DNA of 64,000 bases from an uncultured Acidobacteriaceae bacterium (lineage in GTDB: Bacteria; Acidobacteriota; Terriglobia; Terriglobales; Acidobacteriaceae). Where the stretch lies: assembly GCA_963809865.1 (NCBI GenBank), contig CAWELL010000009.1, forward strand, positions 67,263 through 131,262, written 5' to 3'. Under the pieces are notes generated by a model. It saw only the letters and a list, made by a program, of their open reading frames with translations. It did no database searches and was not told the origin of the DNA. Positions 1,302 through 62,176 of this stretch are shown here, piece by piece. Each line of letters begins with the position of its first letter. Within the stretch, counting starts at the first letter, position 1. The translations under genes were made by a program, and so were the position numbers.

Positions 1302-1727
1302 AGATCTCTCCTTGCCGTAGTGGCATCGCGTGAAAACAAACGGCGAGACTCGGCAACACATGGCTGAGATCGCTCGTTCATTACGACTGACTTTCGAGTG
1401 AAGAGCTCGTGACAGCGGGATCCTCGCGCGAGGAGTGTCAGCAAGTCTGAACTTCGCTCACGTTGTGAAACGCTTAAGCGATTGCGGGTAATCGGATCAG
1501 CACAATGTCATGGAGCAGTTGCCATGCCAACTGCGTGAAGGGCTGACTTTCGCAGACGTCGTGTGAAGAGTTGCCTGTGCTATCAACGCTTTGCTGTGTA
1601 GGGTGCCTGTCGGTACGGGCTCATCTGGAGCGGTTCGCCAAGTTTGCGTCTATCTGTACGGATAGATTGGCTAGCCATGAGGTGAGTCAGAGGGAAAATA
1701 TCTTTGAGCGTACTAAAGCCACACCCC

Positions 1728-5310: not shown

Positions 5311-6804
5311 TTAGTTGACGGGGCAAATGCCGCCGGGCTGGCCGGAGCAACCTTGCTGTCCGGGACCAACGTGGACGCTCTGGCGTCCGCTATTGGCGGG
5401 CGTCACGAACGGAAAAGTATTGTTGTAGCCATGATCGTTGAGCTGCACGCCATCACCGATGCGCGCGTTGTACTTATTGGGATCGGCGAGGATTCCCTGC
5501 ACGGCGCGAGCAGCGATGTCGACTACGTCATCCACCGGACGACGTCCGTTGGGGAAGCCTGCGTTGTCACCCACGATGAAGCCCAGACGCTTCTGCTGAT
5601 CAACGGGAGTGGGAGGAATGCCGGTGTTGAGGCGCAACAGGTCAGCAATTGGCCCTGCATCGTTCGGTCCGCATCCCGGGCAGATTGGAGGCATGTACTG
5701 CACCAGCGGCAGCAGATCAAGACGCGGCGGAGGGGGAATTGGCACACCCAGCACGCTGTTGAATAGATGCGCGAGTAGTGGATCGAGGAAGAAGTCGGCA
5801 AACTGCGAATCGTTTACCGGGAAGTCGGTGCTGAACTTGTCCTTCGAGCCGGTGCCGATAATCAACTCGTTGATGAGCGAGTTGCCTTCACGGTTCACTT
5901 GGGCCACGGCAGTGTTCGGCGACAGCGTGTACTGACCACGCCGAACAGTAATAACCGGGCGCGAAGTGGAACCGTAAGTTCCGATCACGGCCCGCTTGTC
6001 GCCGGCGCCGTGCATCATGCCGTCCTGCGTGAGCATGGTGATAGGCACTTCAATCGCGATGCTGTTAACGTTGTAGCCCGCAACGGCGTCGGGTGCGTAG
6101 TTGTTCTTGTCGTCGTTATCGACGGCGGGAGTCAGTATCCCGCCCACGCCCATGCGGAAGTTCAGCGAGTCGAAGGCCGCGCCCAGGTCGATGTAGAAGG
6201 GATCGTCCACCGTTCCGGCGAACACGTGTATGTTGTTCCCCAAGTCGTAGATTCCCTGGCTGAATAGCGACGGGTAACTCGGCATGGTGAGCGGCCCAAC
6301 ATTGGACGGCACGGCGAAAACTGTCTTGCCCGCTGTGAGGTCCGTCGAGACGCCGTTCTTGATCATGGTGACGGTGTAATGCTGACGTAGGCTCAGGCCT
6401 TCGGAGCCAGGGCCGTCGAGAGCAGTAATGGGCGGAATGTTGTAGATGCCACCGACAAATCCGGTGAACACATCGGGCAGGCGAATTTCAGTAGTGAAAC
6501 GGAACTGAAACTTAATGTCGGGAATGCCGTCGCGGTTGTTATCGACAAGCATCTCGTACACTACATTCGGATCGAAGGGAAAGTAGTTGGGGCCGTTGGC
6601 CGGCTCCAGCAGCGGATCGACATTGAGAATCATGGTCACGCGATCTGGGTGGTCATAGCTCACGAACGCGTACCAGTCGGTAACGTCCGCGCCGTGATCG
6701 AGGGCAGTGATAGGCGCTTCACGGTGGCTGGATGCGAACGCAGCAGCGGGCACCAGCAACAGCAGAGCGATAAGACACACTACGGGTATATAGAGTCTCC
6801 TCAT
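5311..6804 (-). CDS. DUF4331 family secreted protein
   Basis: 497-aa ORF with a signal peptide followed by ASSHREAPITALDHGADVTDWYAFVSYD, the characteristic N-terminal motif of DUF4331. It lies 62 nt upstream of the TPR gene on the same strand. Confidence 0.8.
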   Translation of the reverse strand: MRRLYIPVVCLIALLLLVPAAAFASSHREAPITALDHGADVTDWYAFVSYDHPDRVTMILNVDPLLEPANGPNYFPFDPNVVYEMLVDNNRDGIPDIKFQFRFTTEIRLPDVFTGFVGGIYNIPPITALDGPGSEGLSLRQHYTVTMIKNGVSTDLTAGKTVFAVPSNVGPLTMPSYPSLFSQGIYDLGNNIHVFAGTVDDPFYIDLGAAFDSLNFRMGVGGILTPAVDNDDKNNYAPDAVAGYNVNSIAIEVPITMLTQDGMMHGAGDKRAVIGTYGSTSRPVITVRRGQYTLSPNTAVAQVNREGNSLINELIIGTGSKDKFSTDFPVNDSQFADFFLDPLLAHLFNSVLGVPIPPPPRLDLLPLVQYMPPICPGCGPNDAGPIADLLRLNTGIPPTPVDQQKRLGFIVGDNAGFPNGRRPVDDVVDIAARAVQGILADPNKYNARIGDGVQLNDHGYNNTFPFVTPANSGRQSVHVGPGQQGCSGQPGGICPVN

Positions 6805-7106
6805 TGAAAGAACCTCGCAAATGTCGGATTGAAAGACGCGCGGTGATCTGTCTGGGGAAGGGGCCTTACCGGCGTCGCTCTATCCTGAGTTACGCGGAAA
6901 CTTTGAAATCAGATTGTGCGGAGCAGATTTTTCGTGAGAGAAATTGCTTTCGTGAATTGTTGACAGTTTTCGTTTGAGAATCCAAACCGAATCGAGGCTC
7001 GTTACGTACCTCTTTGAGGGGTGCACGACAGGTGGCCCATATCGGCGCATTCGCTCGAGCGATAGATCCATCCCGCCCGCCGAAATCGCGTGCGCTTCAT
7101 AACATC

Positions 7107-8081
7107 TCAGCCGGTTCGCTGGCGATAGCTGGCCCTGAGCTCTGTGACAATCTCATCCGCCGCCTTCCGGGCCTCGTCAAATTTCCCCGGAGGAAACGAG
7201 ATAGCGCCCACCCGAGCGTGACCTCCGCCGCCATAGCGCTCGCAGATCTTTGCCAGATTCTCCGTCGGTTTGATCGGCGCCCATGGGTTCGAGCCAACCG
7301 AGACCTTGGTACGAAACGAACTTTTGCTCAGTCCCACACTGTAGGTGCCGTTGGGATGAAGGTAATAGGGGATGAACTTGTTGTATCCCTCCAACTCGTG
7401 GTCGGTGATATCGAAGAAGATGGTGCCGTCGGTGCAACTGGAGCGCTGCCGCAGGACTTCGATTGACTGTTTGTGTCGCCCCAGCAGCGCCGGCAAACGA
7501 TCAGCCACTATCGGCTCGGCCACGATATCGGCCAGCGGCTTGTAGGCCAACATCGGGATAAGCTTGGGAAGAAGCTCGGAATCCTGGGTTGATTCGATTA
7601 CCATGGTCAGCTTCATCGCGGGCTCGGCCATCTCCACCGCAGTTTTTGCGTCGGCATAGAGCGCACCATCGATGATGTCGGCCCATTCAACGAGCTGGGC
7701 CACACTATCCTTCCTGAACCCGAAGCGGTTCTCTGTCACGTCGGCGATGAACTTGGTACACGAGCGGTAGTCGGGATCGTAGAACTTGGTGTTGCTCAGC
7801 GTGCTCTCGTAGTGCTCGGCATCTTCGGGCGTAAGGAACGCGCTCTGGTGATGATCGAACCACCAGGTAATCTGCGGCGACGGCGAATACTTGAAGTCGA
7901 CGATCGCGTTCTCGTCGCCGGTAAACTCCGCTTCATTGAACAGCGCTCCAGCGCGATGCAGCAGGCCCGAGTATTCGAACTCCGCGTGCTCGCGGATGCG
8001 CTCGCGATAAAACCGGCTGAATACCGCCGCCGAACATGCTCCGTCAAAACAACGATCGTGGTAGAACACCTTGACCCGCAC
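7107..8081 (-). CDS. DHH/DHHA1 family phosphoesterase
   Basis: 324-aa ORF with an N-terminal FYHDRCFDGACSAAV motif, the WWFDHHQSAF (DHH) motif and the C-terminal GGGGHARVGAISF (DHHA1 GGGH) motif. Confidence 0.75.
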   Translation of the reverse strand: MRVKVFYHDRCFDGACSAAVFSRFYRERIREHAEFEYSGLLHRAGALFNEAEFTGDENAIVDFKYSPSPQITWWFDHHQSAFLTPEDAEHYESTLSNTKFYDPDYRSCTKFIADVTENRFGFRKDSVAQLVEWADIIDGALYADAKTAVEMAEPAMKLTMVIESTQDSELLPKLIPMLAYKPLADIVAEPIVADRLPALLGRHKQSIEVLRQRSSCTDGTIFFDITDHELEGYNKFIPYYLHPNGTYSVGLSKSSFRTKVSVGSNPWAPIKPTENLAKICERYGGGGHARVGAISFPPGKFDEARKAADEIVTELRASYRQRTG

Positions 8082-8301
8082 AGCCTTCGCACCGCTCCCT
8101 TCGGCCGTTTGTCCTTACATTGACGTCCGGCGCGACCTGCTACTGCAATGACTTTTTCGAAAAGTGAAAAGTAAATAGAAATGACATGCGCAACGGGGCG
8201 CTGTCAAGCGACCGCGCAATGTGTTCTCTCAATATACATGGGGAAAGGCGCTGAAGAAGCGTTTCAAGGGGCAACGAAACACCAGAATTACACGGCTCGA
8301 C

Positions 8302-8874
8302 TTAAGGTGCTTCCGCCAACTTCTCTGCAAAGTCGCCCACCAGCGGCAGCTTGAAGGTCTCGTGTTCGTACGCCTTGAAAACCAGCAACAGCCATAACGT
8401 GAGCTCCGCCAGAATGAGCAGACCATATAGTGAAAGCACCAATAACGGAAGGAGCTTTCCAAACAGCGCAATCGCCAGCTGCAAAACGATCAACGCACCG
8501 ACCGTAAGCAGACACTGGATACTGTGGAACCTGACAAAGCGGTTTCGGTTGAAGGGACGAACCAGCAGGAACACGATCGCAGGCACAACGAAGTAGGCCA
8601 GCATGCCTGCGATGTTGTCGGGCAGACCCGAAGCGATATTGGGCACTGTCACCTGCGGCTCGCGGGCTGCAACAGCGGGAACGTTCGGAGTTGCAGCAGA
8701 CGCCGCATTCGGCAAAGGCGAAGACGTGCCGGTTCCACAGTTCGGGCAGAACCGGGCCGACTCCGCAATCTGTTGAGCGCAACTAGGACAGGCTGGCAAC
8801 GAGTCAGGCCTTGGCGCTGACTGCTGCGTCGGCGGCGATTGGCAGACCCGCTTTCTCCCAGGCGTCGAAACCAC
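8302..8874 (-). CDS. zinc-ribbon plus DUF4870-like integral membrane protein
   Basis: CPSCAQQIAESARFCPNCG zinc ribbon followed by three predicted TM helices (GMLAYFVVPAIVFLLVRPFNRNRFVRFHSIQCLL resembles DUF4870). The start is uncertain. ATG 8874 overlaps the upstream gene by 71 nt, and TTG at 8799 would remove the overlap. Confidence 0.6.
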   Translation of the reverse strand: MVSTPGRKRVCQSPPTQQSAPRPDSLPACPSCAQQIAESARFCPNCGTGTSSPLPNAASAATPNVPAVAAREPQVTVPNIASGLPDNIAGMLAYFVVPAIVFLLVRPFNRNRFVRFHSIQCLLTVGALIVLQLAIALFGKLLPLLVLSLYGLLILAELTLWLLLVFKAYEHETFKLPLVGDFAEKLAEAP

Positions 8875-10201
8875 CGATCACGTTGACGACGTTATCGTGG
8901 CCCGCACGCTGCAGGAAGCTGCACGCAATGATGCTGCGGTAACCGCCCTTGCAATGTACGGCGACGGGCACATCGGAATTGAGTTCAGGCAACGCGCCCT
9001 TGAAATTGTCCAGCGGATGCCAATCTGCGCCTTCGAGGTGGCCTGCGTTCCATTCACCTTCGCGGCGAACGTCGAGCACGTGAAGTGCCCTCTTGTCGAG
9101 TTGATTTTTGAGCTCTTGCACTGTCACCTGAGCTACTTGTGCGAGCGGCAGCCCTGCCGCTTTCCACGCTGAAATGCCGCCCTCAAGGTAGCCCGCAACG
9201 TCTTCGATGCCCACACGCGCCAGCCGCAGCCGCGCCTCGGAAATCTGCTCTTCGGTTTCGCCAATCAGCACCGGATCCGCCGCCAATCCCAAAACCGCGC
9301 CGGCCCAAGAGGCGAACTGGCCTCCCAGCGGAATGCTGATCGACTTGGGCACATGGCCGGCGGCAAACTCATCCTGGTGTCGCACGTCCACCGCGGTGAC
9401 ACCCTGAGCAATCTGATATTGCAACTCAGCCGGCGCGATCGGCGCTAGCTCAGGAAGTTCATTGAGCGCCGCAGCACCTTCGCGATTGATGGCGGCATCC
9501 TGGGCGAAATACTCAGGGCGCGCAGGAAGGTTCGAAGTCATCTGCGCCACGAAATCCTCCCGCGACTGGATCTGTAGCGCCCAATTGGTCAGGCGCTCAG
9601 TGCCAATGGTTGATGAGCTCTCGGCTCGCATCTTGCGTCCGCAAAGCGAACCGGCACCGTGCGCGGGATACACCAGCGTCTTATCGGGCAGGGTCATCAG
9701 CTTGTGGTGCAGCGAGTCGAACATCATGTCGGCGAGCTGTTGCGGGGTGTGCGTCGGAGAAAGGTCGGGCCGGCCCACATCGCCGATGAAGAGCGTGTCG
9801 CCGGTAAACACCGCCCACGGTTCATCTCCATGCTCACAATCCGTAAGCACCAGGCAGATGCTCTCGGGCGTGTGGCCGGGAGTTTCCAACGCGGTCAAGC
9901 GGACGTCTCCAACTTGCAACGCGAACCCGTCATGCAGTGCGACGTGCTCGAACTTCGCGCCCGCGGCAGCACCGACGTAGATTTTCGCCCCCGTTCGTTC
10001 CGCCAACTCGCGATGCCCGGAGACGAAGTCGGCATGAAGATGCGTTTCGAAGATGTAACGGATCGTAAGTCCGTTCTTCTGCGCCGCCTCGATATAGATT
10101 TCGACATCCCGCTGCGGATCGACGACGACCGCCTCGTCCTTCGAGCCGAACATGTATGAGGCATGCGCCAGGCAGCCAAGATAGAACTGCTGAAAGTACA
10201 T
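8804..10201 (-). CDS. MBL-fold metallo-hydrolase fused to two rhodanese domains (persulfide-dioxygenase-like)
   Basis: ORF 8804..10213, with the probable start at MYFQQFYLGCLAHASYM (ATG 10201). It has the metal-binding motif ETHLHADFVSGH and C-terminal rhodanese repeats with the active-site loop VHCKGGYRS. Confidence 0.8.
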   Translation of the reverse strand: MYFQQFYLGCLAHASYMFGSKDEAVVVDPQRDVEIYIEAAQKNGLTIRYIFETHLHADFVSGHRELAERTGAKIYVGAAAGAKFEHVALHDGFALQVGDVRLTALETPGHTPESICLVLTDCEHGDEPWAVFTGDTLFIGDVGRPDLSPTHTPQQLADMMFDSLHHKLMTLPDKTLVYPAHGAGSLCGRKMRAESSSTIGTERLTNWALQIQSREDFVAQMTSNLPARPEYFAQDAAINREGAAALNELPELAPIAPAELQYQIAQGVTAVDVRHQDEFAAGHVPKSISIPLGGQFASWAGAVLGLAADPVLIGETEEQISEARLRLARVGIEDVAGYLEGGISAWKAAGLPLAQVAQVTVQELKNQLDKRALHVLDVRREGEWNAGHLEGADWHPLDNFKGALPELNSDVPVAVHCKGGYRSIIACSFLQRAGHDNVVNVIGGFDAWEKAGLPIAADAAVSAKA

Positions 10202-10376
10202 GGAATCCCCCATTCGCGCGCAATCATAAACCGCTGGCGACTGTGAATAGTATCAGGTATTGGTAAGGCTTGGAGTATGTGGCCTGCGCTCGCGAAGGAG
10301 ATTGGTGCCAGAAGCAGTTCAGGGTGGGTGTACCGGGTAGCGCGGACTCTTTTAGGTCGCGGCTCAGGCGGCACCT

Positions 10377-11783
10377 TTACGCGGCTTCCCGCGACGAGTC
10401 CTTAGGCTCGAGTTCCGGAATCACTTCAGGGCGTCCCACGCTGTAGTAGATGAATCCGGCCTTCTCCATCTGCTGAGGCGAGAAAAGGTTTCGCCCGTCC
10501 AGCAGAATCGGCTGCTTCATGCGCGCCCGCAACCGTTCCAGATCCAGGGCCGCGAACTCTTCCCATTCTGTCAGCACAAGTAGAGCATCGGCGTCGGTCG
10601 CCGCCGCATAGGCGCTCTTGGCGAAGGTGATTGCCGCGCCTTCGGCAAACTCCACCTTCGCCCGAGCCGTTGCCGCAGGATCGTAAGCAGTGACGCGGCA
10701 GCCTTCTTTCAGCAGCCTGTGAATCACTGCGATAGCGGGTGACTCGCGCACGTCGTCAGTGCCCCCCTTGAAGGCCAGGCCAAGCACCCCGAGCCGCTTC
10801 CCTTTTAGGGGCCATAATGCCTGCCGAACCTTGCGGACAAAATGAGTGCGCTGGTCCTCATTGATCTGCATCACGTCTTCTAAGAGGCGGAAATCGCAGC
10901 CGCTTTGATGAGCGACGGCGCGAAGGGCCTTCAAGTCTTTCGGGAAACAAGAGCCACCGTAGCCGATGCCGGGCCGCAGGAACTTGCCTCCAATGCGCTG
11001 ATCGCTGCCGATCCCGTCAACCACTTCCTCGACATCGGCCCCATTAGCTTCACAGATCTTTGCGATTGCGTTGATGAAGGAAATCTTCGTCGCGAGAAAG
11101 GCATTGGCAGCATGCTTGATCAGCTCGGCGCTGGCGGAGCTGGTCATCACCACGCGCGTGGGTATCCGCGCCCCATCGGGTGCAGGGATCGCGCCATTTG
11201 AGGCGGCGTAGCTCCCGTCGAGCAGCGGCTTATACGCTTTGCTCAGCAAATCGGCGCTGCGGGGACAGTCGCAACCCAGCACGATCCGGTCGGGATACAG
11301 GAAGTCGGTAACCGCTGTGCCTTCACGCAGAAATTCGGGATTGGAAGCTACACGAAAACATGATGGGTGCCCGCCGTAATGCTGCAACACACGGGCAATC
11401 CGATTATTGGTACCCACGGGCACAGTGCTCTTTATCACGACTACCTTGAAACCGTCGACGGTGCGTGCGATTTCGCGGCATACGGAGTCGAGCACAGAGA
11501 CGTCCGCTTCGCCGTTGTCGCACGGTGGCGTACCTACCGCGACGAACACCATCGCAGCGTCCTCCAGTCCCTGAGCGAGTGACGTGGTGAATTGCAACTG
11601 CTCGCCGACATAACGGGCGAGCAGTTCGGGAAGAAATTCTTCGTGAATGATGGTTTCGCCGCGCTTAAGCGCCGCGACTTTGGTCTCGTCCTTGTCAACG
11701 CAGACGACTTGGTGGCCGATCTCTGCAAAACACGCAGCCGCCACTAAGCCAACATAGCCCGAGCCTACAATTGCAATTCGCAT
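10377..11783 (-). CDS. ugd: UDP-glucose 6-dehydrogenase
   Basis: ORF 10377..11834 trimmed to MRIAIVGSGYVGLV (Rossmann GxGxxG). The catalytic motif GYGGSCFPKDLKAL is present and the length is typical. Confidence 0.9.
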   Translation of the reverse strand: MRIAIVGSGYVGLVAAACFAEIGHQVVCVDKDETKVAALKRGETIIHEEFLPELLARYVGEQLQFTTSLAQGLEDAAMVFVAVGTPPCDNGEADVSVLDSVCREIARTVDGFKVVVIKSTVPVGTNNRIARVLQHYGGHPSCFRVASNPEFLREGTAVTDFLYPDRIVLGCDCPRSADLLSKAYKPLLDGSYAASNGAIPAPDGARIPTRVVMTSSASAELIKHAANAFLATKISFINAIAKICEANGADVEEVVDGIGSDQRIGGKFLRPGIGYGGSCFPKDLKALRAVAHQSGCDFRLLEDVMQINEDQRTHFVRKVRQALWPLKGKRLGVLGLAFKGGTDDVRESPAIAVIHRLLKEGCRVTAYDPAATARAKVEFAEGAAITFAKSAYAAATDADALLVLTEWEEFAALDLERLRARMKQPILLDGRNLFSPQQMEKAGFIYYSVGRPEVIPELEPKDSSREAA

Positions 11784-11808
11784 CACGAAGCGGGTCCCCG
11801 AAAGAAAT

Positions 11809-13152
11809 TCAGATGTTTGTTGTTGAACCAACATCGTCGCGCCAACTTATGCCGCCCGTTTCCAGTTCTCCGAGCGAGACGGGGCGCTGGTCTTGAATGT
11901 CACTAAACCCCTTGTCGCCGAAGAGCGACAAATAATGCTGGTGCGCGCGCTCCCAGGCTTCGTCGTCCGGCGGCTGGCCGAAAATCTCGATATAACTTGG
12001 ACTACCTGGGAACGGGAACATCGGAACCGGTTCGCTCACCCAGACTCCGCGCGCTTTCAAGGTTTCTTGCCAACGGCGAATCTCGTTCTTGTTATCTTTA
12101 TCCGTCAGGATCAGGTTCGCCTGTACCCAGGGAATTCGCTGGCGCGCATAGATCAGCAGCTCAGTTATGCGCTCAGTTGACATGCGACAGTTCTTGTTCA
12201 ACTCGTCGCGGCCCTCGTCCGTAATCGACTCGATGCCACACTCCATCGAAATGCAACCGGCACGTCCGAGAAGGTCGAGCGTTTCTTCGTTCCACAGATC
12301 GATTCGCGTCTGGAAGCCGATCTTCACGTTTCGCTCGGCTAGACCCTCCACCAGCCTGAGCACGTTCTTGCCAACACCAAATATTTCGTCAATGAAGTAG
12401 ACGTAATCAACTCCGCGCTCGACTAAACGATCTACTTCTGTGAGGACGGCCTCGATCGTGCGCTCGCGAAACTTGTTACGGAAGAGTGTCTTATTGCAAA
12501 AGCTGCAGGCCCAGGGACACCCGCGGGCAAACTCCAATTCAGCGCCGCGTCCTTCTCCGCTGAAGACGTGGTGCCGATGCCGATGGCGCTCCACGTTGTA
12601 GTTGTGGAAGTCCAGCGGTGCAAGAGCTCTCATATCGGTAACGCCCAAGCCCGGGTTGAGGCGCAGCGTTCCGTCGGGTAGGCGATAGCAGCAGCCGACA
12701 ATGTCCTCCCATAATTTGGTCGCCAACTCAGGAATGGTTTGATCCGGCTCGCCGCGTAGCACCACATCGCAATTCAGCTTGCGCAGCGTTGCTGCCGGAG
12801 TCGCTGAGCCGTGGGGACCGATCGCAACCTGTATGGTTCCGTCGCCCAGCGCGGCGAACCACTGTTTCGGAACGCGCAGCTCCGGCTGAGGACAACGCCA
12901 AAATAAATATGAGGGGGCCGTCGGAATCACCAGGAAGTTAGGCCCGAAAACCCGTAGTTCCTGGCGAACCTGCTGGATCGTGAGATCGTCCACTTGCGCA
13001 TCGATGAGCAGCGGCTCGTGCCCGGCAGCACGGATCTGGTCGAAAGCAAACAACAGCTCCAGCGGGTAGTGCGGATCGCGACATCCGAAGTAGGTCGAGC
13101 CTTCGAACGTCCAATTCGGATTGACTAGCGCGAACTTCATCATGCCGTCCAT
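11809..13152 (-). CDS. B12-binding-domain radical SAM protein
   Basis: 447-aa ORF. The N-terminal Rossmann-like B12-binding region is MKFALVNPNWTFEG...HEPLLIDAQVDDL. It has the CxxxCxxC cluster motif GCPWACSFCNK. The alternative ATG at 13143 forms an ATGA overlap with the stop of the upstream epimerase gene. Confidence 0.8.
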   Translation of the reverse strand: MDGMMKFALVNPNWTFEGSTYFGCRDPHYPLELLFAFDQIRAAGHEPLLIDAQVDDLTIQQVRQELRVFGPNFLVIPTAPSYLFWRCPQPELRVPKQWFAALGDGTIQVAIGPHGSATPAATLRKLNCDVVLRGEPDQTIPELATKLWEDIVGCCYRLPDGTLRLNPGLGVTDMRALAPLDFHNYNVERHRHRHHVFSGEGRGAELEFARGCPWACSFCNKTLFRNKFRERTIEAVLTEVDRLVERGVDYVYFIDEIFGVGKNVLRLVEGLAERNVKIGFQTRIDLWNEETLDLLGRAGCISMECGIESITDEGRDELNKNCRMSTERITELLIYARQRIPWVQANLILTDKDNKNEIRRWQETLKARGVWVSEPVPMFPFPGSPSYIEIFGQPPDDEAWERAHQHYLSLFGDKGFSDIQDQRPVSLGELETGGISWRDDVGSTTNI

Positions 13153-14252
13153 GGGAGCGGGACCGGGCTAGCCGGCGAGGGCATCTCCGCAACCTTAGCT
13201 GGGGCGAATAGGTCACGATTCTGCTTCCACCATCGCTGCATTCTGCTTAGTGTCTCGGGTAGCCGGATGTTGGGCCTCCACCCGGTATCGTTTTGTAGCT
13301 TCTGCGTATTGCTGACGTACACTGCCTGATCGCCGGGGCGTACCACGTCGAAGCTGGTTTCTAGCTTGCGGCCAGTGAGTCGCTCGATCATTGCCATCAG
13401 CTCAAGCAGGGACACGGAATTCTCTGGACCTCCGCCAACGTTATAAACGCGTCCTTCGCCTGAGAGCTCAAGGTTCCGCACCGCGTCGAACGCGCGTACC
13501 AGATCGGCGACGTCGAGCACATCGCGAACTTGCAGGCCATTGCCATAGACAGTTACGGGCGTGCAGTTCAAAGCCGAGTACAGAAAGTGAGCCACCCATC
13601 CCTGGTCTTCAGTACCAAACTGGTGCGGACCGGCAACACATGACATGCGAAACACGGCGGTGTTCAATCCGTAGATGCGTGAGTAATCGCGCACGTACTG
13701 GTCAGCCGCGCCTTTCGAGCAGCCGTAGGGAGAGTGGAAATCCAGCGGCTGGGTCTCCGAAGTTCCTTCGGGATTCGAGCAGCCGTAGCGGGACTTCTCG
13801 GGCCAGACGTCGCCGCTGCTGGCACTCCCATATACCTTGTTGGTAGAAGTGAACAATAGAAAAGGTTGATTGCCCGACTTGCGCGCTGCTTCCAGAATGT
13901 TGAAGGTGCCGACGAGGTTGATGTCAAAGTCCAGTCGCGGCGCCAGGACTGAGGTGGTAACAGCCACCTGAGCGGCGAAGTGATAGACCTCTGTGGCGTG
14001 GCGCAGGGCCCGCTCCACCATCTCGGCGTCGCGAATGTCGCCTACCGTAATCCGGAGCCGGCGCGACCGCCCAGCTACCGCTTCCAGCGCGTGCAGGTTG
14101 TGGCGAACGCCGCTGCGCGAGAGATTGTCAAAAACATGGACCTTGGCCTCGGTATTCTGCAGCAGCCACTCCGCCCAATTGGCACCTATGAAGCCGGCGC
14201 CTCCAAAAATAAGGACTGACCGAAACGGATTTCTCCTGCTCGTCACGGGCAC
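13140..14252 (-). CDS. NAD-dependent sugar epimerase, CDP-paratose 2-epimerase (tyvelose epimerase)-like
   Basis: 370-aa ORF with a GTG start. It has VLIFGGAGFIGANWAEWLL (GxxGxxG), FDNLSRSGVRHNL, STNKVYG and DFHSPYGCSKGAADQYVRDYSRIYGL (YxxxK). These match my memory of the Salmonella RfbE/tyvelose epimerase family. Confidence 0.8.
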   Translation of the reverse strand: MPVTSRRNPFRSVLIFGGAGFIGANWAEWLLQNTEAKVHVFDNLSRSGVRHNLHALEAVAGRSRRLRITVGDIRDAEMVERALRHATEVYHFAAQVAVTTSVLAPRLDFDINLVGTFNILEAARKSGNQPFLLFTSTNKVYGSASSGDVWPEKSRYGCSNPEGTSETQPLDFHSPYGCSKGAADQYVRDYSRIYGLNTAVFRMSCVAGPHQFGTEDQGWVAHFLYSALNCTPVTVYGNGLQVRDVLDVADLVRAFDAVRNLELSGEGRVYNVGGGPENSVSLLELMAMIERLTGRKLETSFDVVRPGDQAVYVSNTQKLQNDTGWRPNIRLPETLSRMQRWWKQNRDLFAPAKVAEMPSPASPVPLPWTA

Positions 14253-50652: not shown

Positions 50653-50665
50653 GACTATAAGGACG

Positions 50666-51307
50666 GGGTGCCCCACTCAATCCATCGTTTGGATTGAGTG
50701 GGATGTCACACTGTTGACGGCGCCAAGTCACAGACCTCACCTCACCAGTCGCATAGTCTCACGCTGTGACAGCCGGTCTCAAGCGCTATTACCTCGAAGG
50801 CTCTCTCCACTTCATCACCTTCAGTTGTTATCGGCGACTGCCTCAACTGGGAACGGCAGCGCGACGCGACCTCTTTCTGCAGGTTCTCGAACAGGCGCGG
50901 CGACGATACCGTTTCGCGCTTCTGGGATATGTCGTCATGCCCGAGCACGTTCATCTGCTGATGACCATGCCCACTGTGGGCGACCCGTCGGTGGTCATGA
51001 AGGTGGTGAAAGAACGCTTCAGTCGACTGCTGCGCAAGCGCGAAGCGCTGAGTGATCGGGTGTGGCAGAAGCGCTTTTACGACTTCAACGTATGCACCGA
51101 AAAGAAGCGGGTTGAAAAGCTACGCTACATGCACCGGAATCCGGTGAAGCGCGGACTGGTTTTCAGTCCCGAAGAGTGGGACTGGAGTAGTTTTCGGTTT
51201 TATCTCAACGGTGAGAAAAGACTCGTAGAGGTTAATCCTTGTCCTTGGCGATTCCAGCATCGCGAATCCCACTCAATCCAACCGATGGATTGAGTGGGGC
51301 ACCCGGC
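50666..51307 (+). mobile_element. REP-RAYT-REP cassette, copy 1 (642 bp)
   Basis: The 5' REP GGGTGCCCCACTCAATCC-ATCGTTT-GGATTGAGTGGGAT spans 50666..50705. The RAYT ORF follows. The inverted 3' REP ATCCCACTCAATCC-AACCGAT-GGATTGAGTGGGGCACCC spans 51265..51307. Confidence 0.85.
50766..51293 (+). CDS. REP-associated tyrosine transposase (RAYT; IS200/IS605-type Y1 transposase family), copy 1
   Basis: 175-aa ORF with a GTG start. It reads YYLEGSLHFITFSCYRR, has the HUH motif VVMPEHVHLLM and the catalytic Tyr region LRYMHRNPVKRGLV. It is flanked by inverted REP hairpins. Confidence 0.85.
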   Translation: MTAGLKRYYLEGSLHFITFSCYRRLPQLGTAARRDLFLQVLEQARRRYRFALLGYVVMPEHVHLLMTMPTVGDPSVVMKVVKERFSRLLRKREALSDRVWQKRFYDFNVCTEKKRVEKLRYMHRNPVKRGLVFSPEEWDWSSFRFYLNGEKRLVEVNPCPWRFQHRESHSIQPMD

Positions 51308-51414
51308 CTTCAGCTCCCATGCGGGGGTGACGTGTCGCTCACCCACCATCGCTCTCGATCCCCTCTTCGTACTCTCTCATCAAACACAACAAGGATCGGT
51401 TCTTGGCCAGCGAG

Positions 51415-51800
51415 TCACGCCCCTTTTGCCCGGTCATCATAAAGCTTCATCGTTCGCCTTATCGCCCAGATAGCGATAGGTCTGCGACAAGGCTTCATAT
51501 ACCTGCCGCGTGGGACCAAGACGTCTCCGTCGGGAAATCCCGTAGAATGGTCTCCAGCTGTTGTTTCGCCTGCGCTAGAGCACCGGCTTTGTACTGGCGA
51601 ATGGCGAACCGCCATAAAGCTCTATCCTCTATATCGTTCCCGAGTCCGAGAGTGACGCCCGGGCGAACTCCTGTTTCGCACCCTCGGTGTCGTTTACATT
51701 CAAGGCATACTCCTAGCGCGAAGTGTACTGTTGCTCACTGCCGGCAGACTGAAGGAAAACGAGCCCTTCCCGCGAATGGGCATCGCCTCCTTGAACCGAG
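51415..51800 (-). pseudogene. decayed fragment of a TPR/BamD-like gene
   Basis: Minus-strand translations in two different frames give LWRFAIRQYKAGALAQAKQQLETILRDFPTETSWSHAAG and then VYEALSQTYRYLGDKANDEAL-stop. Further upstream, LSRFKEA and ALNVNDTEGAKQEFARA pieces are interrupted by stops. Confidence 0.35.
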
Positions 51801-52222
51801 ACAGACTAAATAGCGTGAGTGCACGACGGCATTGAACGTCCTCGTATAGGTATCGATGCTCAGGGTCATTTCAATGCTAGCCACGATATCGATGGAGCAT
51901 CCCGGCAAAAGCTCCTGACCGCAGTTTTCATGAGTACCTAGCCGGCTAAGACAGAAGGCTCGAGTTCGCAGAACAAGCTAGAAGCCAAGTCCCGAGATCA
52001 GCCATGCCCAGATGCTTTCCCGTGCTCGCAGCGTGAGCTGAACTTTCTCAGCGATCTAGCTTCCACTAGGCACGTGCAGCGTGACAGCTTACTCTCATTC
52101 CTGCAATCGATTCATCAAGCAGGGTTGGACTCCCTAAGTACCCAACATGCCGATTACCGACGCATAGGTAGCTGTACTGTATCCAGGTAACTCCAGTACG
52201 CAGGTTGAAGGCGCAATGGGCC

Positions 52223-52864
52223 GGGTGCCCCACTCAATCCATCGTTTGGATTGAGTGGGATGTCACACTGTTGACGGCGCCAAGTCACAGACCTCACCTC
52301 ACCAGTCGCATAGTCTCACGCTGTGACAGCCGGTCTCAAGCGCTATTACCTCGAAGGCTCTCTCCACTTCATCACCTTCAGTTGTTATCGGCGACTGCCT
52401 CAACTGGGAACGGCAGCGCGACGCGACCTCTTTCTGCAGGTTCTCGAACAGGCGCGGCGACGATACCGTTTCGCGCTTCTGGGATATGTCGTCATGCCCG
52501 AGCACGTTCATCTGCTGATGACCATGCCCACTGTGGGCGACCCGTCGGTGGTCATGAAGGTGGTGAAAGAACGCTTCAGTCGACTGCTGCGCAAGCGCGA
52601 AGCGCTGAGTGATCGGGTGTGGCAGAAGCGCTTTTACGACTTCAACGTATGCACCGAAAAGAAGCGGGTTGAAAAGCTACGCTACATGCACCGGAATCCG
52701 GTGAAGCGCGGACTGGTTTTCAGTCCCGAAGAGTGGGACTGGAGTAGTTTTCGGTTTTATCTCAACGGTGAGAAAAGACTCGTAGAGGTTAATCCTTGTC
52801 CTTGGCGATTCCAGCATCGCGAATCCCACTCAATCCAACCGATGGATTGAGTGGGGCACCCGGC
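52223..52864 (+). mobile_element. REP-RAYT-REP cassette, copy 2 (642 bp, offset +1557)
   Basis: It has the same sequence as 50666..51307 by visual comparison and identical translations in three frames. The flanks outside these limits differ. Confidence 0.85.
52323..52850 (+). CDS. REP-associated tyrosine transposase (RAYT), copy 2, identical to copy 1
   Basis: Its 175-aa translation is identical to that of 50766..51293. The overlapping ORFs in other frames are also identical. Confidence 0.85.
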   Translation: MTAGLKRYYLEGSLHFITFSCYRRLPQLGTAARRDLFLQVLEQARRRYRFALLGYVVMPEHVHLLMTMPTVGDPSVVMKVVKERFSRLLRKREALSDRVWQKRFYDFNVCTEKKRVEKLRYMHRNPVKRGLVFSPEEWDWSSFRFYLNGEKRLVEVNPCPWRFQHRESHSIQPMD

Positions 52865-52903
52865 TCCTTGCCACTCAGAGTCATTGCTCGACCCCTTGAG
52901 CGC

Positions 52904-53698
52904 CTAAACTGCGACGTGCATGGCCCAAAAAAAGTACAACAAGGGCACTGCAGCCAAAGAAGCCCATCTTCCGGCTCCTTTCCCGAACAAGCAAAGAACA
53001 GCCGCAATCAAACACATCAAACCGTTCACATAGGTCCACGAACTTATGCGTGGCGTAGGCCACAGCGGATGACCAAATCCATACCGGTAGATAAACTCGC
53101 CCGAAAGCTGGACTAGGCTGATCGAGAGCACCGCCAACCCGGCGAACAAAAGCCACTTCCGCCATTGAGGATACTGCCGTTTGTCCCTCGTTTGCTGCAG
53201 CCAAGCCAAGGCTACGAGAAAACAGAGTGCCCCAAACAACGACCAGCCGATCACGAACGGTTTCTTGGATGGCGGACTTGTTTTGAACTCCACTGTCTGA
53301 ACAGTGACAACCTCAACCGGTACTCCGTCCTTCAAAAACGGCCGGTACTTCCAACCTCGCACTGCTTGGGACGCGGCCTCTCCCAATGTCGGATCACCTA
53401 TGATCCTCCGAACCGAACTGACGCTTCCCGAACTGGAAATGGTCACCTCTAGCCCAACTGTGCCCCCAGCGATGTGCTGTGATCTGCCGCTTTCCGGCAG
53501 CGTCGGGTATGTGCGCTGCAAAATGTGGGCGTCAGCATCTTCCGATGGAACATGAACGGGGGGCGGACCTTCTAGAGCGGCCGCAATCGTGCACCATCCG
53601 ATTGCTAGGATAGCGATAGTATGCGCCTGTCTAGAGATGCGGGCTGCGGTTACGTAGACCAATTTTGGCGTTCGCCAGCGATGGATTATGGACCACAT
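52904..53698 (-). CDS. polytopic membrane protein with central TonB C-terminal-like domain (candidate Rhs-tip immunity partner)
   Basis: ORF 52904..53725 trimmed to ATG 53698 (AAGAGG RBS). The N-terminal TM helix is AHTIAILAIGWCTIAAAL. YPTLPESGRSQHIAGGTVGLEVTISSSGSVSSVRRIIGDPTLGEAASQAVRGWKYRPFLKDGVPVEV matches the TonB_C pattern. Four C-terminal hydrophobic helices follow. Confidence 0.65.
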   Translation of the reverse strand: MWSIIHRWRTPKLVYVTAARISRQAHTIAILAIGWCTIAAALEGPPPVHVPSEDADAHILQRTYPTLPESGRSQHIAGGTVGLEVTISSSGSVSSVRRIIGDPTLGEAASQAVRGWKYRPFLKDGVPVEVVTVQTVEFKTSPPSKKPFVIGWSLFGALCFLVALAWLQQTRDKRQYPQWRKWLLFAGLAVLSISLVQLSGEFIYRYGFGHPLWPTPRISSWTYVNGLMCLIAAVLCLFGKGAGRWASLAAVPLLYFFWAMHVAV

Positions 53699-53735
53699 AG
53701 AGGACCTCTTATTACGGCTCGACAACTACTGATGC

Positions 53736-55016
53736 CTACTTGATGGAGCGCCAGCGGAACGGAGTCGGGGCGCCAAAGTTAATAAAAAAACCTCCGTAAT
53801 AGCCGGTCTCAGAGGTTCCGTTGAGAAAGAACCCTCCAGTCGAATATGCATAACCGTTACTGCCACCCGCACCTCCACCACCTCCGCCGTAGTATCCTTT
53901 TGGAAACTTCGCACCCCATTTGCCCAGCTGATTGATACTTCCTTCTGGAACGTTGAAGATGTTTTGAGGTTTCTTGCCAACCTGATAACCCCAGGCTTCC
54001 CACGATGGGTACGCTGAGCTAGAGCCACCATCGATAGAGCATCCTGTCGCACTGCACGTTACGCTCGTGCTCAGCAAAATGGCGCCAGGAGATCCGGGAA
54101 GTCCACAGAATCCATTACAGGCGCTGGCATATAGGAATCCTGTCGTTGAATCCGCAGTAGAACTGGAGCTCCAATACTGATTAATCGTGCCCTCGGCGCT
54201 CACGTAGAAATCAGGAATTTCCGGTAGGTCGATCAGGACTTTACTCGTACCGGGCGCAGCGCGTTCGAACATTGTGTTGCTCTGAACGTCGTATATGAAC
54301 TGAAACTCCGCACGGTAAGTCCCACCTGAACCGCTCGGACCGCGATTATCACCGAACCCTGTGACAAAAGGTGGCCCGGACAACGTCGCTGCTGAGATGT
54401 AGGCGTCGATACAAAGACCGATTTGGCCTTCCTGAAGTCCGGCTGGTTGTGAGCAGAGCCCCCTGGGATCGATTCTGCTCAGTGGGTTGTTGCCCACGTA
54501 GGCATAGCGGTTCCAGGTCTGGGGGTTGGTGATGTCGACGGCGGCCAGCCCTGCCGGATCGGGCGACAGCCAGCGTCCCATGCCCGCTGAATGCTCGCGG
54601 AAAAGGAAGTCATAGATGCCCGTCTGCCCCTTGATCACGTCCTGCGTGTTGCCGGTAAAGAAGCGGTCTGCCGTTCCCGTCTCGGCGTAGGTCTCGCCAA
54701 ACGGAGCATACGCCCGGTCGTACACCGGATTGCCATTGGGATTGGTCGCAAGCCGCGACGAGCCCAGCCAGTCGGCATGACGAATGTACTGCTCACCCGA
54801 GGCGTTGAACACCTCCACCATGCCGTTCACCATGGGCATGAAGTAATTCTGGATGCTGCCGTTCTGCAGCGTAGCAAAGCGGGAGCCGTCGGGCTGATAC
54901 AGAATGTGCGTCACCGTGCCGGTGGTATCCTCCACGGCAACCGTCTGTGCCGAGCCCAGTGTAAGATTCGGCTGTGAGGAACCCTCTGGCGTCGCACGAT
55001 ACCTCTGCGATCCCAT
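53736..55016 (-). CDS. orphan Rhs/YD-repeat core C-terminal fragment with unassigned 239-aa C-terminal (toxin-like) domain
   Basis: The sequence reads YDRAYAPFGETY...FREHSAGMGRWLSPDPAGLAAVDITNPQTWNRYAYVGNNPLSRIDPRGL. This is the RHS repeat-associated core signature, with a double DPxGL. A novel C-terminal domain follows. The only ATG lies inside a REP hairpin, and the N-terminal shell is absent. Confidence 0.75.
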   Translation of the reverse strand: MGSQRYRATPEGSSQPNLTLGSAQTVAVEDTTGTVTHILYQPDGSRFATLQNGSIQNYFMPMVNGMVEVFNASGEQYIRHADWLGSSRLATNPNGNPVYDRAYAPFGETYAETGTADRFFTGNTQDVIKGQTGIYDFLFREHSAGMGRWLSPDPAGLAAVDITNPQTWNRYAYVGNNPLSRIDPRGLCSQPAGLQEGQIGLCIDAYISAATLSGPPFVTGFGDNRGPSGSGGTYRAEFQFIYDVQSNTMFERAAPGTSKVLIDLPEIPDFYVSAEGTINQYWSSSSTADSTTGFLYASACNGFCGLPGSPGAILLSTSVTCSATGCSIDGGSSSAYPSWEAWGYQVGKKPQNIFNVPEGSINQLGKWGAKFPKGYYGGGGGGAGGSNGYAYSTGGFFLNGTSETGYYGGFFINFGAPTPFRWRSIK

Positions 55017-55050
55017 TCATTCCAACCGAAGGAATGAATGGGGCACCCGG
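55010..55050 (-). repeat. REP hairpin, variant CCCATTCATTCC (inverted orientation)
   Basis: TCCCATTCATTCC-AACCGAA-GGAATGAATGGGGCACCCGG. It contains the ATG of the Rhs fragment ORF. Confidence 0.8.
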
Positions 55051-55087: not shown

Positions 55088-55552
55088 TTACCTCTTACGT
55101 TGCCCTTGCCGCAGCATCTCCATCATCTGCGCGGTGCGCCGCTCGCGAGTTTCTTCTCTCTTCGCGTCCTCGATGGCGCGAACATGCTCCTTCTGATGAG
55201 TGAACGACAGCTTAGCCCAGCGTTGCTTCACCTGCGCATCGCTGTTAATGATCTTCTTGAGATAGGCCGGCAGCTCGACCTTGCGCTCTTCCTGGTCGAG
55301 TTCCATCACGATCTTCACTATATCGCCAGCCTTGCATTTGCCGCCCGCGCGCATTTGGGCATTGACGCACATCATGTGGCCCTCGCCCGTGTTCATCAAC
55401 GAACTACGAAACGGAAATCCGTTGACCGTGCCCTTCACCGGCACGCGGCCTTTGCGCCCGAACACTTCCACCACGTCGAAGGGAGGCTTCAGACCAGCAA
55501 CCTGCGAACCTTCTCGACCGATCAGCTTGACTGTGAACTTGTGCCGCGCCAT
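55088..55552 (-). CDS. DUF1905 / YdeI-like domain protein
   Basis: 154-aa ORF. PFDVVEVFGRKGRVPVKGTVNGFPFRSSLM is DUF1905-like. LPAYLKKIINSDAQVKQRWAKLSFTHQKEHVRAIEDAK is YdeI/OmdA-like. Confidence 0.75.
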   Translation of the reverse strand: MARHKFTVKLIGREGSQVAGLKPPFDVVEVFGRKGRVPVKGTVNGFPFRSSLMNTGEGHMMCVNAQMRAGGKCKAGDIVKIVMELDQEERKVELPAYLKKIINSDAQVKQRWAKLSFTHQKEHVRAIEDAKREETRERRTAQMMEMLRQGQRKR

Positions 55553-55607
55553 CCGTCCTCCTCCGTCTCAACTCCCCGCGCAACAGTTTATCCGGCCGCG
55601 GGTGAGA

Positions 55608-55748
55608 GCAGGCCCCGATGGGGCATATCCGTTCAGCAACGTGACCATCGACATCGATGGTACGCTCTATGGCACCGCACAGGCCGGTGGCAACCTAACC
55701 TGCAACGCCTCGGTTGGTTGCGGCACCGTGTGGATGATCGAGCCGTAG
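55608..55748 (+). pseudogene. terminal-repeat remnant of a GloVer (Gloeo_Verruco) repeat protein
   Basis: The in-frame tail AGPDGAYPFSNVTIDIDGTLYGTAQAGGNLTCNASVGCGTVWMIEP-stop equals one GloVer unit (compare GNLYGTT..GG....G.VF.L in 60908..62176). No signal peptide or earlier repeats lie upstream. Confidence 0.45.
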
Positions 55749-56176
55749 CGGAATCGTGGTCGCTCATCACACTGACCTGTGACGAACTCGCTTGGTGGCT
55801 AGCCCTCGCTTGCGTACAATTGCAACGTTGAGGACGAGGGAGATTTGTCTCTTTCGCCCGATCGCGCCCTGAATGAGGAGGCGTGACGCACTCCAATCGT
55901 CATACCGAGTCTTGGCCGCTGTTAACCACTTTTAAATCACCCCAGCTACTCCACCCTCAAGAAATCGCACTTAAGTCCTTTCCTTGTAAGATTTTGCCTC
56001 TAAGTCTCACGCGCTCAAGATTTTGCGGAGATTTTTTTCACGCGGCTCAATCGTTTCAAGATTTTAGGGTAGGGTGGGGGGAGGGGGTACCTCCTGCACT
56101 GCACTCAATACGGTGCAATCGTCCGAAGCGCGGAGATGTTACCAACCAGCCAACATTAGTTTCACTTCGGAAGGAT

Positions 56177-60907: not shown

Positions 60908-62176
60908 CTAGGGCGTAAGCTCATAGGCGATGGCGCCGTTGTTGCCGCCCTGCGTCACTCCATAAATATTGCCAGTGTTGTTATCGAGGACAATGCCTAG
61001 CGGCCACCACCCATCAGTGTAGTAGTTGAAATCGTGGAGCGAGGTATAGGCCCACATTCCGTTCGAAGGTGCGAGGCTAAACGTATTGCCGCCTGAGTTG
61101 TACACCCCGGTGTTGTCGGACGTGCCGTACAGATTACCTGCGGCATCAACAAGCAGGTTTGCATTGCACTGCGCATAGTAGGCCGCAAATTTGTAAATTG
61201 CCTTGTAGGTCCATCCGTTGTCGCCCGGCGACAACTCGAAAACTCCGGCGCCGCCCGGGTCTCCGTCCTGACCAACACTCGTACATCCGTAGAGATTGCC
61301 CGATGAGTCAACCGTCACAGCAGTATCCGAATATCCTCCATCCCCGGTATTGAAGGCGTGCAGCACAGATTCAGAGCCGTTTGGGGTTACCTTGAACACT
61401 ACGCCCCAAGCTATGCCGCCGAGTTGAGTGGTCCCGTAAAGGTTTCCATTGGCGTCAAGTGTGAGGTTGCTCAAGGGTCTCGCACCGTCCCCGAGGCCCG
61501 CAAAGGTATAGAGGACGGAGTAGTTCCATTCGCCGTTGGAACGCGTCAGTTTGTAAACCACGCCGCAGCCATATTCGCCGCCGCAACCGTGTGATCCTCC
61601 GGCGCTGGTTGTGCCATACAGATTGCCCGCCGCATCAGCAACCACACCGCCGTAAGGGTATAGATCCGGGTTGTTCTCGCAGCCGAAGTCATGTAAGCGG
61701 GTGAGCGTCCAATGGGCATTTATAGTAGCCGAAACTCTGGCGCTGGAAGGAGTGAGTTGGAATACAGTGCCATCGCCGCAGGCGCCGCCAAGCTCGGTGG
61801 TTCCGTAGAGAACACCGCCGGAGCCGAGCAGCAATTGCCCCATCGGCAGGTAGCCGTTGCTGGTTTCCGGACCGAAGAGGTAAATGATCGAAAAGCTCCA
61901 ATGCGAGCCTTGCCGGCTGAGTTCGAAGATCAGCCCGCACCCCTGGAAGTCCGGATCGCAGGTATAAGGTCCGCCATAGACGGCGTTACCGTAGAGATTT
62001 CCGCTAGCATCCATTACCAGACTGGTGGGTACCCAGCCGCCATTTTCGTCAAGAAAGTTGTGAAGCACGGTCAAGGTTTGCGCCTGCGCCGCTTGTGTGG
62101 CAACGATCACCGGCAGGCCCGCTATGGCAATAGCCAGCACGGCAATTTTCGTCCAGTTCCAGACATGTTTTGTCAT
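60908..62176 (-). CDS. secreted GloVer (Gloeo_Verruco) tandem-repeat beta-propeller-like protein
   Basis: 422-aa ORF with a signal peptide. It has 7-8 units such as GVLYGTTELGGACGDGTVFQL, GNLYGTTSAGGSHGCGGEYGCGVVYKL and GNLYGTTQLGGIAWGVVFKV. Confidence 0.8.
   Translation of the reverse strand: MTKHVWNWTKIAVLAIAIAGLPVIVATQAAQAQTLTVLHNFLDENGGWVPTSLVMDASGNLYGNAVYGGPYTCDPDFQGCGLIFELSRQGSHWSFSIIYLFGPETSNGYLPMGQLLLGSGGVLYGTTELGGACGDGTVFQLTPSSARVSATINAHWTLTRLHDFGCENNPDLYPYGGVVADAAGNLYGTTSAGGSHGCGGEYGCGVVYKLTRSNGEWNYSVLYTFAGLGDGARPLSNLTLDANGNLYGTTQLGGIAWGVVFKVTPNGSESVLHAFNTGDGGYSDTAVTVDSSGNLYGCTSVGQDGDPGGAGVFELSPGDNGWTYKAIYKFAAYYAQCNANLLVDAAGNLYGTSDNTGVYNSGGNTFSLAPSNGMWAYTSLHDFNYYTDGWWPLGIVLDNNTGNIYGVTQGGNNGAIAYELTP

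Follow-up and report, generated by a model that had tools for sequence, protein, structure and literature searches.

A REP-bounded orphan Rhs tip with a DUF3238-like terminal domain and a TonB_C membrane partner: a putative toxin/immunity cassette in an acidobacterial chromosome

A stretch of 64,000 nucleotides from an uncultured Acidobacteriaceae bacterium (assembly GCA_963809865.1, contig CAWELL010000009.1, positions 67,263 to 131,262 of the forward strand), hereafter the window, contains an open reading frame (ORF) that ends as an Rhs protein would end and keeps only a short part of the shell that should come before it. It is followed on the same strand by a gene for a 264-aa membrane protein with a TonB_C domain. 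What is such a remnant, what would its C-terminal domain (CT) do, and why should a TonB_C protein be found where the immunity gene of an Rhs toxin normally sits? Following the analyses described here, we consider it probable that the locus is an orphan Rhs C-terminal putative toxin/immunity cassette, in which the CT would act in the cell envelope, the 264-aa protein would be its immunity protein, and the whole would be a stored allele. Systems of this kind are ordinary and well known, but as far as we could find no description exists of this toxin family, of its immunity families or of the accretion of TonB_C.

The first-pass annotation, made from the letters alone, had read the locus as an orphan Rhs tip, and this reading is backed by the truncation, by the boundary formed of repetitive extragenic palindromic (REP) elements and by the absent shell. 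The 426-aa ORF is present with all the motifs that had been quoted from it, and an exact-sequence look-up returned no identical protein. Its residues 103-187 match the RHS repeat-associated core model TIGR03696 (Rhs_assc_core) at 56.1 bits (cutoff 32.5), so the core that had been recognised by its motifs is supported by a model search. The two DPxGL motifs of this core, PDPAGL and IDPRGL, are both there with the 25-aa spacing between them, although the stretch before NNPLSRIDPRGL, first counted as 25 aa, has 18 aa. With blastn, DNA homology to the Rhs fragments found in sister strains begins at 54945, at about residue 25, and therefore about 163 aa (residues ~25-187) are derived from Rhs and the first 24 codons are fortuitous; the shell remnant is confirmed, but at this length and not at the ~185 aa first given. 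Over this fragment the window is 96-98% identical to Rhs fragments in three other contigs, L003, L055 and L056.

The TEN_YD-shell model scored 11.9 bits on the ORF, below its cutoff of 50, and neither a shell of more than 1000 aa nor an N-terminal delivery region is present. With ~163 Rhs-derived residues remaining and no shell, the ORF is therefore an orphan fragment and not a functional Rhs. A full-length rhs gene is also missing from the window, as had been claimed: six full-length Rhs queries match 53898..54977 only, and there was no RHS match in the four window ORFs of 744-1,257 aa that were scanned, the domains of which are kinase/TPR, purple-acid-phosphatase-N/fn3, beta-lactamase/NamZ and CarboxypepD_reg. 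No adjacent full-length parent rhs was found in the window or in the 62-kb contig L003. At the 5' end, the sole ATG does lie inside a REP hairpin, with an in-frame TGA directly before it, and the upstream gene at 55088..55552 (-), which encodes DUF1905 and OmdA domains, is as unrelated to Rhs as had been stated. By pattern search there are five REP copies in the window against none expected by chance. The locus is thus an orphan, REP-bounded Rhs tip that retains its self-cleaving core and, before it, the last part of the YD shell.

The annotation had been unable to place the CT in any toxin family. No toxin family or function was matched in our searches either, but the domain can be placed by its fold. 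A word-index protein search with the CT returned only two relatives, one a near-identical copy and the other 60% identical; an exhaustive HMMER search with residues 188-376 returned 170 sequence clusters at E<=1e-3. Many of these family members are the extreme C-terminus of RHS-repeat proteins of 1,575-2,206 aa, which have N-terminal Sec signal peptides and in which no other delivery domain, including PAAR/VgrG-type adaptors for type VI secretion (T6SS), was recognised. Most members stop within a few residues of the domain, and therefore the domain itself is the terminal module. These comparisons show the CT to be a widespread terminal domain of full-length, predicted Sec-exported Rhs proteins, mostly from Acidobacteriota.

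The AlphaFold2 (AF2) model of the CT, built on a 39-sequence alignment, is all-beta with a pLDDT of 97.2 and a pTM of 0.91. Using this model, Foldseek gave 3c5p as the sole significant match (TM-score 0.83/0.81, rmsd 2.5 A, E 3e-9, probability 1.00) and nothing among viral structures. The entry 3c5p is BAS0735 of Bacillus anthracis, a DUF3238 (PF11579) protein of unknown function, and it was also found at E 1.3e-9 when the CT family profile was searched against the PDB (hmmsearch). The CT family and 3c5p have in common the motifs GD-x-R and [YF]P-[SC]-x-E-x-Y, and the invariant or near-invariant positions of the family (in ORF numbering) are C188, P191, G200, C202, D223, R225, P337, Y344 and E358. 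The likeness to BAS0735 thus extends to the same all-beta fold with homology at the profile level; the two differ in that BAS0735 stands alone as a protein, in a Gram-positive bacterium, and in that the family carried by Rhs proteins begins with an additional Cys...Cys segment. The Pfam model of DUF3238 gave no match to the window's domain at E<=1, and hence none at its gathering threshold, and it matched 6 of the 39 relatives weakly (best E 2.3e-4). Neither Pfam nor NCBIfam contains a family that covers the CT. By profile and predicted structure, then, the CT is a remote relative with the DUF3238 fold that falls outside the family by the Pfam threshold. A literature search returned no mention of DUF3238 or BAS0735, and the portion of the 2012 polymorphic-toxin catalogue that was covered contains no TonB, DUF3238 or 3c5p.

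What follows the CT in other genomes bears directly on the immunity question. We collected 46 loci with the domain from genomes and metagenomes, the genome scan being made with an 8-sequence subset of the alignment, and nearly all the named loci are from metagenome-assembled genomes of Acidobacteriota. Wherever the sequence downstream could be read, the CT is followed on its own strand by a gene for an envelope protein, in most cases after a gap of 1-20 nt or with a 4-nt overlap. The commonest type of partner is a family of ~122-129 aa with four transmembrane (TM) helices (4-TM), present in at least 13 loci; there are also a ~140-aa lipoprotein family (9 loci) and a signal-anchored DUF6843 protein (2 loci), and other partners are proteins with 3-6 TM helices or larger proteins. 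When the toxin domains of 39 loci were clustered, partner type tracked toxin clade, and such clade specificity is a signature of cognate immunity. The collection shows clade-specific partners, all predicted to be envelope proteins, across the CT family.

Several of these loci deserve description in their own right. The lipoprotein family (~126-165 aa, with the motif MRPIGPEV..LV.YFK) follows the Rhs stop codon in L010, L012, L014, L015, L017, L018, L021, L023 and L025, belongs to Pyrinomonadaceae and relatives and is not represented in Pfam; it may be a family of periplasmic immunity proteins. Members of the 122-129-aa 4-TM family carry the motif GPDYSxRRF and a C-terminal SVV, and are found after the Rhs stop codon in L031-L044 and L050-L052; several of the loci with these partners continue into further Rhs-core fragments, an indication of orphan arrays. 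The partner in L013 is signal-anchored, contains cysteine and matches Pfam DUF6843 at 34 bits, and the partner in L020 is homologous to it (blastp 27%, E 1.7e-27), which suggests that DUF6843 may include immunity proteins. In L059 a 1,641-aa Rhs has around it three integrases of phage type, transposases of ISL3 and IS66 and a reverse transcriptase (1..3953 and 9838..12926), and it therefore lies on a mobile island. A 261-aa protein with a signal peptide is encoded directly 5' of rhs in both L059 and L060.

The protein encoded after the window's own CT starts 37 nt past the stop codon of the Rhs ORF (ATG at 53696..53698), and the distance and the architecture first described for it, one N-terminal TM helix, a TonB_C domain and four C-terminal TM helices, both hold: five helices are predicted, and TonB_C is matched by PF03544 at 44.9 bits (cutoff 24.6) and by TIGR01352 at 31.1 bits. 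By the positive-inside rule the TonB_C domain is periplasmic; the AF2 model of the protein is of low confidence overall (pLDDT 67). The same TM-TonB_C-4TM arrangement follows the CT in L003 and in L001/L002, where the toxin is 60% identical to the window's and the partner 46% identical, and where the truncation point of the orphan and the flanking genes are different. In L058, the third member of this toxin subfamily, the partner is homologous to the 4-TM part only (52-58% identity), and the gap before it has no space for a TonB_C domain. The full-length Rhs of L059 carries a related toxin and is followed by a 125-aa 4-TM protein that matches this same part of the window's protein (30% identity over 106 aa, E 2.7e-4). 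Since the 4-TM module recurs without TonB_C, it is likely to be the immunity determinant and TonB_C an accessory fusion. A second case of TonB_C is found in the same toxin super-clade, in L030, where the stop codon of a 1,684-aa Rhs is overlapped by a gene encoding a signal peptide, a domain X and TonB_C (70 bits); in its sister L026, with a 63% identical toxin, the partner consists of domain X and TM helices. The comparative context provided by L002, L003, L058, L059 and the tracking of clades therefore supports the CT and the TonB_C gene as a putative toxin/immunity pair, as had been proposed. A downstream partner on the same strand that appears to be co-inherited with the toxin tip and to vary with it is the context of an immunity gene.

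A more familiar role for a TonB_C protein does not suit this one. Like the transducers TonB and TolA it has an N-terminal membrane anchor followed by a periplasmic TonB_C, but its linker is short (~10-25 residues) and has no Pro-rich spacer, TonB_C is not C-terminal, four TM helices come after it, and no exbB or exbD is found among the neighbours (Rhs, RAYT, RmuC, DUF1905, Fur). Because TonB_C is held at the inner membrane by helices on either side, without a periplasm-spanning linker, the protein is not an energy-transducing TonB. A TonB-like S-x3-H motif in the N-terminal helix was considered and rejected, as the His is not conserved in the alignment of homologues. We also considered that the extra tails of some toxins pair with periplasmic domains of the partners (TonB_C or X), but the idea fails in L058 and L059, where tailed toxins go with 4-TM-only partners. 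One copy of the TonB_C gene, P0007 on an 81,777-nt ENA contig, is identical for 136 residues and then frameshifted, which could be an assembly error or a natural inactivation in another population.

The sister strains indicate how the orphan could have been assembled. Contig L003, in which the flanking GroEL, M48 peptidase and Fur are 99% identical to those of the window, carries an array of three Rhs orphans at the matching site. The first has the same truncated fragment (98% identical, residues 1-187) on a different C-terminal domain, and the next gene, of 186 aa, gives a faint match to DUF4288. The second, of 333 aa, corresponds to window residues 100-426 and is followed by an identical TonB_C gene, and after these come a RAYT (REP-associated tyrosine transposase) gene and the third orphan, the C-terminus of which is different again. 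Joining fragment 1 of L003 to the C-terminus of orphan 2 would give the window's ORF, the join falling inside a core of ~296 nt that is repeated in L003, and such a join would be the expected product of homologous recombination between core repeats. L055 and L056 have this core too (96% identical), but it bears two further C-termini there and the genes downstream are different; they keep ~35 more YD residues at the 5' end than the window, so that their truncations are independent of the window's. Compared in this way, the strains show that cassettes have been swapped by recombination at one Rhs core. The different C-terminus of the first orphan in L003 is a 208-aa Gly/Pro/Cys-rich domain (7783..9569, together with the 186-aa protein), and the third orphan is a 227-aa ORF with an unassigned C-terminus (12539..13222). 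The tips of L055 and L056 have partners of 206 aa and 210 aa. Named relatives are Terracidiphilus, Korobacteraceae and Sulfotelmatobacter, which points to Acidobacteriota as the origin of the window.

Orphan rhs-CT/rhsI modules that arise by C-terminal displacement are established in Enterobacteriaceae such as Salmonella, E. coli and Dickeya. The locus resembles them in that a 5'-truncated fragment keeps the core, with a variable tip behind it and a small gene next to that, and in that the orphans form arrays in which tips are exchanged or lost by recombination through the common core, of which the window and L003 are an example. It differs in that the truncation in the window is bounded by REP/RAYT elements with no adjacent parent rhs in the window or in L003, in that the full-length relatives have Sec signal peptides and not T6SS adaptors of the PAAR/VgrG type, and in that it has other families of toxin and immunity protein. 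The immunity proteins of pore-forming colicins, and Tsi5, that of the Rhs-type pore-former Tse5 (PMC9637101), are likewise small polytopic proteins of the inner membrane encoded directly after the toxin, and this likeness suggests a toxin acting at or in the cytoplasmic membrane. The toxin itself is unlike those of colicins and Tse5, as it is predicted to be all-beta and globular and not a helical pore-former or a glycine-zipper peptide, and, unlike in those systems, some clades of the CT family have soluble lipoprotein partners.

In our reading, the cassette was left between REP elements in a part of the acidobacterial chromosome that is rich in REP and RAYT and is a hotspot of recombination. 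The CT would be a toxin of the cell envelope and would probably act on the periplasmic side of the cytoplasmic membrane, a site that we infer because the partners are all envelope proteins, because two cysteines of the CT are invariant and because its carriers are equipped with Sec signals. The 264-aa protein would be the cognate immunity protein and would act via its 4-TM module. Since the shell and the signal peptide are missing, the toxin is undeliverable from this locus; most likely, then, the cassette would serve as a stored allele, which recombination could join to a homologous Rhs core or put there in place of another tip, and its immunity gene may meanwhile protect against kin that deploy the same toxin.

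We know of no counterpart to a TonB_C fusion among membrane immunity proteins, and no description of TonB_C as an accessory module of putative immunity proteins was found in the literature. Perhaps the fusions (TM-TonB_C-4TM and signal peptide-X-TonB_C) hold the toxin by adding one of its strands to their own sheet (beta-augmentation), in the way TonB binds the TonB box, or perhaps TonB_C is a decoy for a toxin that exploits the TonB of its target. The 4-TM partners that lack TonB_C in L058 and L059 seem to speak against an essential role of this domain. It is a long shot that the whole of the larger proposal holds, namely that the DUF3238 fold is a large undescribed class of Sec-exported, envelope-acting Rhs toxins in Acidobacteriota and that TonB_C, fused independently on two immunity scaffolds, is functional.

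Several observations weigh against the cassette as a stored toxin/immunity allele, and some of them would be expected if the whole were a decaying, unexpressed relic that is neither reservoir nor protection, which we consider unlikely. The shell and signal peptide are gone, the start codon lies inside the REP right after a stop codon, and a promoter scan found no sigma-70-like promoter at the locus; because there is no promoter-like site and the start codon is fortuitous, expression is doubtful. Another assembly has the frameshifted TonB_C copy. No full-length rhs with the window's core was found among the best 120 relatives of residues 1-187 (P0160-P0279), which are all 109-328 aa, in a search that may favour short proteins. 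Some of these short relatives lie on long contigs (0.1-4.2 Mb); short Rhs-core genes may greatly outnumber full-length ones in these Acidobacteriota, so that orphans with this type of core would be common, or the list may reflect the bias of the search towards short proteins. Decay is hard to reconcile, however, with two intact ORFs (426 and 264 codons), with a 239-codon open frame that at such GC content has a chance of ~2e-4 by our own estimate, with a TonB_C protein that is 100% identical in at least four assemblies, with a pair that is intact despite 40-54% amino-acid divergence, and with the active exchange of cassettes at this core in sister strains.

The remaining observations on this side concern the partner. 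Three homologues of the TonB_C-4TM protein (73%, 67-68% and 44% identical) are solo, with no Rhs or CT remnant nearby, and the first two are closer to the window's protein than the CT-linked copy of L002 is (46%). TonB_C domains are moreover common in Acidobacteriota, and the pairings of the window and of L002 may derive from one ancestral event and not two. The kinship of the 4-TM module with the commonest small 4-TM family is no stronger than suggestive: the two are collinear at an hhalign probability of 48-58% (E ~1e-4), against 0.1-0.9% for controls (reversed sequences and unrelated TM families), and a blastp comparison of the window's 4-TM part with the other small TM partner families showed no similarity. 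Co-occurrence of toxin and immunity gene, which had been suggested as a check, is supported by comparative context and incomplete: the TonB_C-4TM protein also stands alone in three contigs at 44-73% identity, which answers in part to one of the conditions first named as refuting the reading. It could be an ordinary envelope gene of the lineage that came to lie beside the orphan by chance or by a single accident, and is not an immunity gene at all. We judge this improbable, given that the pair recurs with different 5' truncations and flanks (window/L003 versus L001/L002), that the 4-TM module alone follows two more related CTs (L058 and L059), that in the same clade a full-length Rhs is followed by a TonB_C fusion of unrelated make-up (L030), that partner type tracks CT clade, and that the TonB_C gene and the CT are alike in low GC. 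The contexts of the solo copies are unrelated and not mutually syntenic, and these copies seem to fit orphan immunity genes as well as a housekeeping role.

To our knowledge the DUF3238 fold has no known biochemical activity, its sole structural relative here is an uncharacterised Bacillus protein and no catalytic motif was recognised in the CT, yet it is highly unlikely that the domain is a binding, adhesion or cargo-plug part of Rhs with export or anchoring partners downstream, since it lies directly after the DPxGL cleavage site, where the toxin of Rhs proteins is established to be, is exchanged for unrelated C-termini on the same core, is found in orphan arrays, and has partners that are polymorphic and clade-specific like immunity genes.

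If the toxin/immunity cassette is what we propose, an envelope-acting toxin becomes a testable functional hypothesis for DUF3238/3c5p, which has a crystal structure and no function. Acidobacteriota are a dominant phylum of soil, and their interbacterial weaponry is almost unstudied. For this phylum at least 170 sequence clusters of Rhs tips and several candidate immunity families are defined here, natural cassette swapping at one Rhs core is documented across sister strains, and TonB_C is seen as an accessory module of putative immunity proteins.

The coordinates of the orphan, its partner and the elements that bound them are collected in the table. Four of the five REP copies flank two identical RAYT genes, as an inverted pair each, and the assignment of these genes is made with NF047646 (IS200-like Y1 transposase type), for which the cutoff is 80 bits.

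Features of the orphan Rhs locus and its REP/RAYT surroundings, in window coordinates
Feature	Position	Strand	Basis or remark
Whole orphan Rhs ORF	53736..55016, including stop codon	-	426 aa
Non-Rhs leader, residues 1-24, next to REP	54946..55016	-	blastn homology to L055/L056 begins at 54945
Residual YD-shell end and RHS repeat-associated core, residues ~25-187	54456..54945	-	TIGR03696
RHS core proper, with both DPxGL motifs	54456..54710	-	
Putative toxin domain, DUF3238/3c5p-like all-beta fold, residues 188-376	53889..54455	-	HMMER, AF2, Foldseek
Gly/Tyr/Phe-rich tail, residues 377-426 (50 aa)	53739..53888	-	common only to the two closest relatives (P0002, P0012)
Probable immunity protein, 264 aa	52904..53698	-	PF03544; helices 12-41, 146-170, 178-206, 220-238, 242-263
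Periplasmic TonB_C domain of the 264-aa protein	~53282..53506	-	PF03544
4-TM module of the 264-aa protein	~52907..53263	-	helix prediction
REP hairpin bounding the 5' end of the orphan, enclosing ATG 55014..55016	55010..55047	-	pattern search
REP hairpin bounding the 3' end of the cassette	52823..52860	-	pattern search
RAYT copy 2	52323..52850	+	NF047646 116.6 bits; REPs at 52224..52261, 52823..52860
RAYT copy 1, identical 175-aa protein	50766..51293	+	REPs at 50667..50704, 51266..51303

The twin RAYT genes lie 1,557 nt apart within 50659..52867, and L003 has four RAYT-like genes in the same region, which therefore looks like an expanding REP/RAYT cluster. Upstream of the orphan, L003 encodes a 455-aa secreted repeat protein (6179..7748) at the site that matches window 55088..55832, and a paralogue of this protein is found in the window at 60908..62176. 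The window keeps only the last ~74 codons of the secreted repeat protein (55608..55828), the rest being replaced by the DUF1905/OmdA gene. This replacement is a second rearrangement, adjoining the REP at the 5' end of the orphan.

Base composition also sets the tip apart from its core. The GC content is 0.533 in the CT and 0.550 in the TonB_C gene, both lower than the 0.615 of the Rhs core, and is 0.577 in the window as a whole, so that the AT-richness first noticed by eye is real; the stretch formed by the CT and the TonB_C gene falls in the lowest 5% of 1.5-kb windows by GC.

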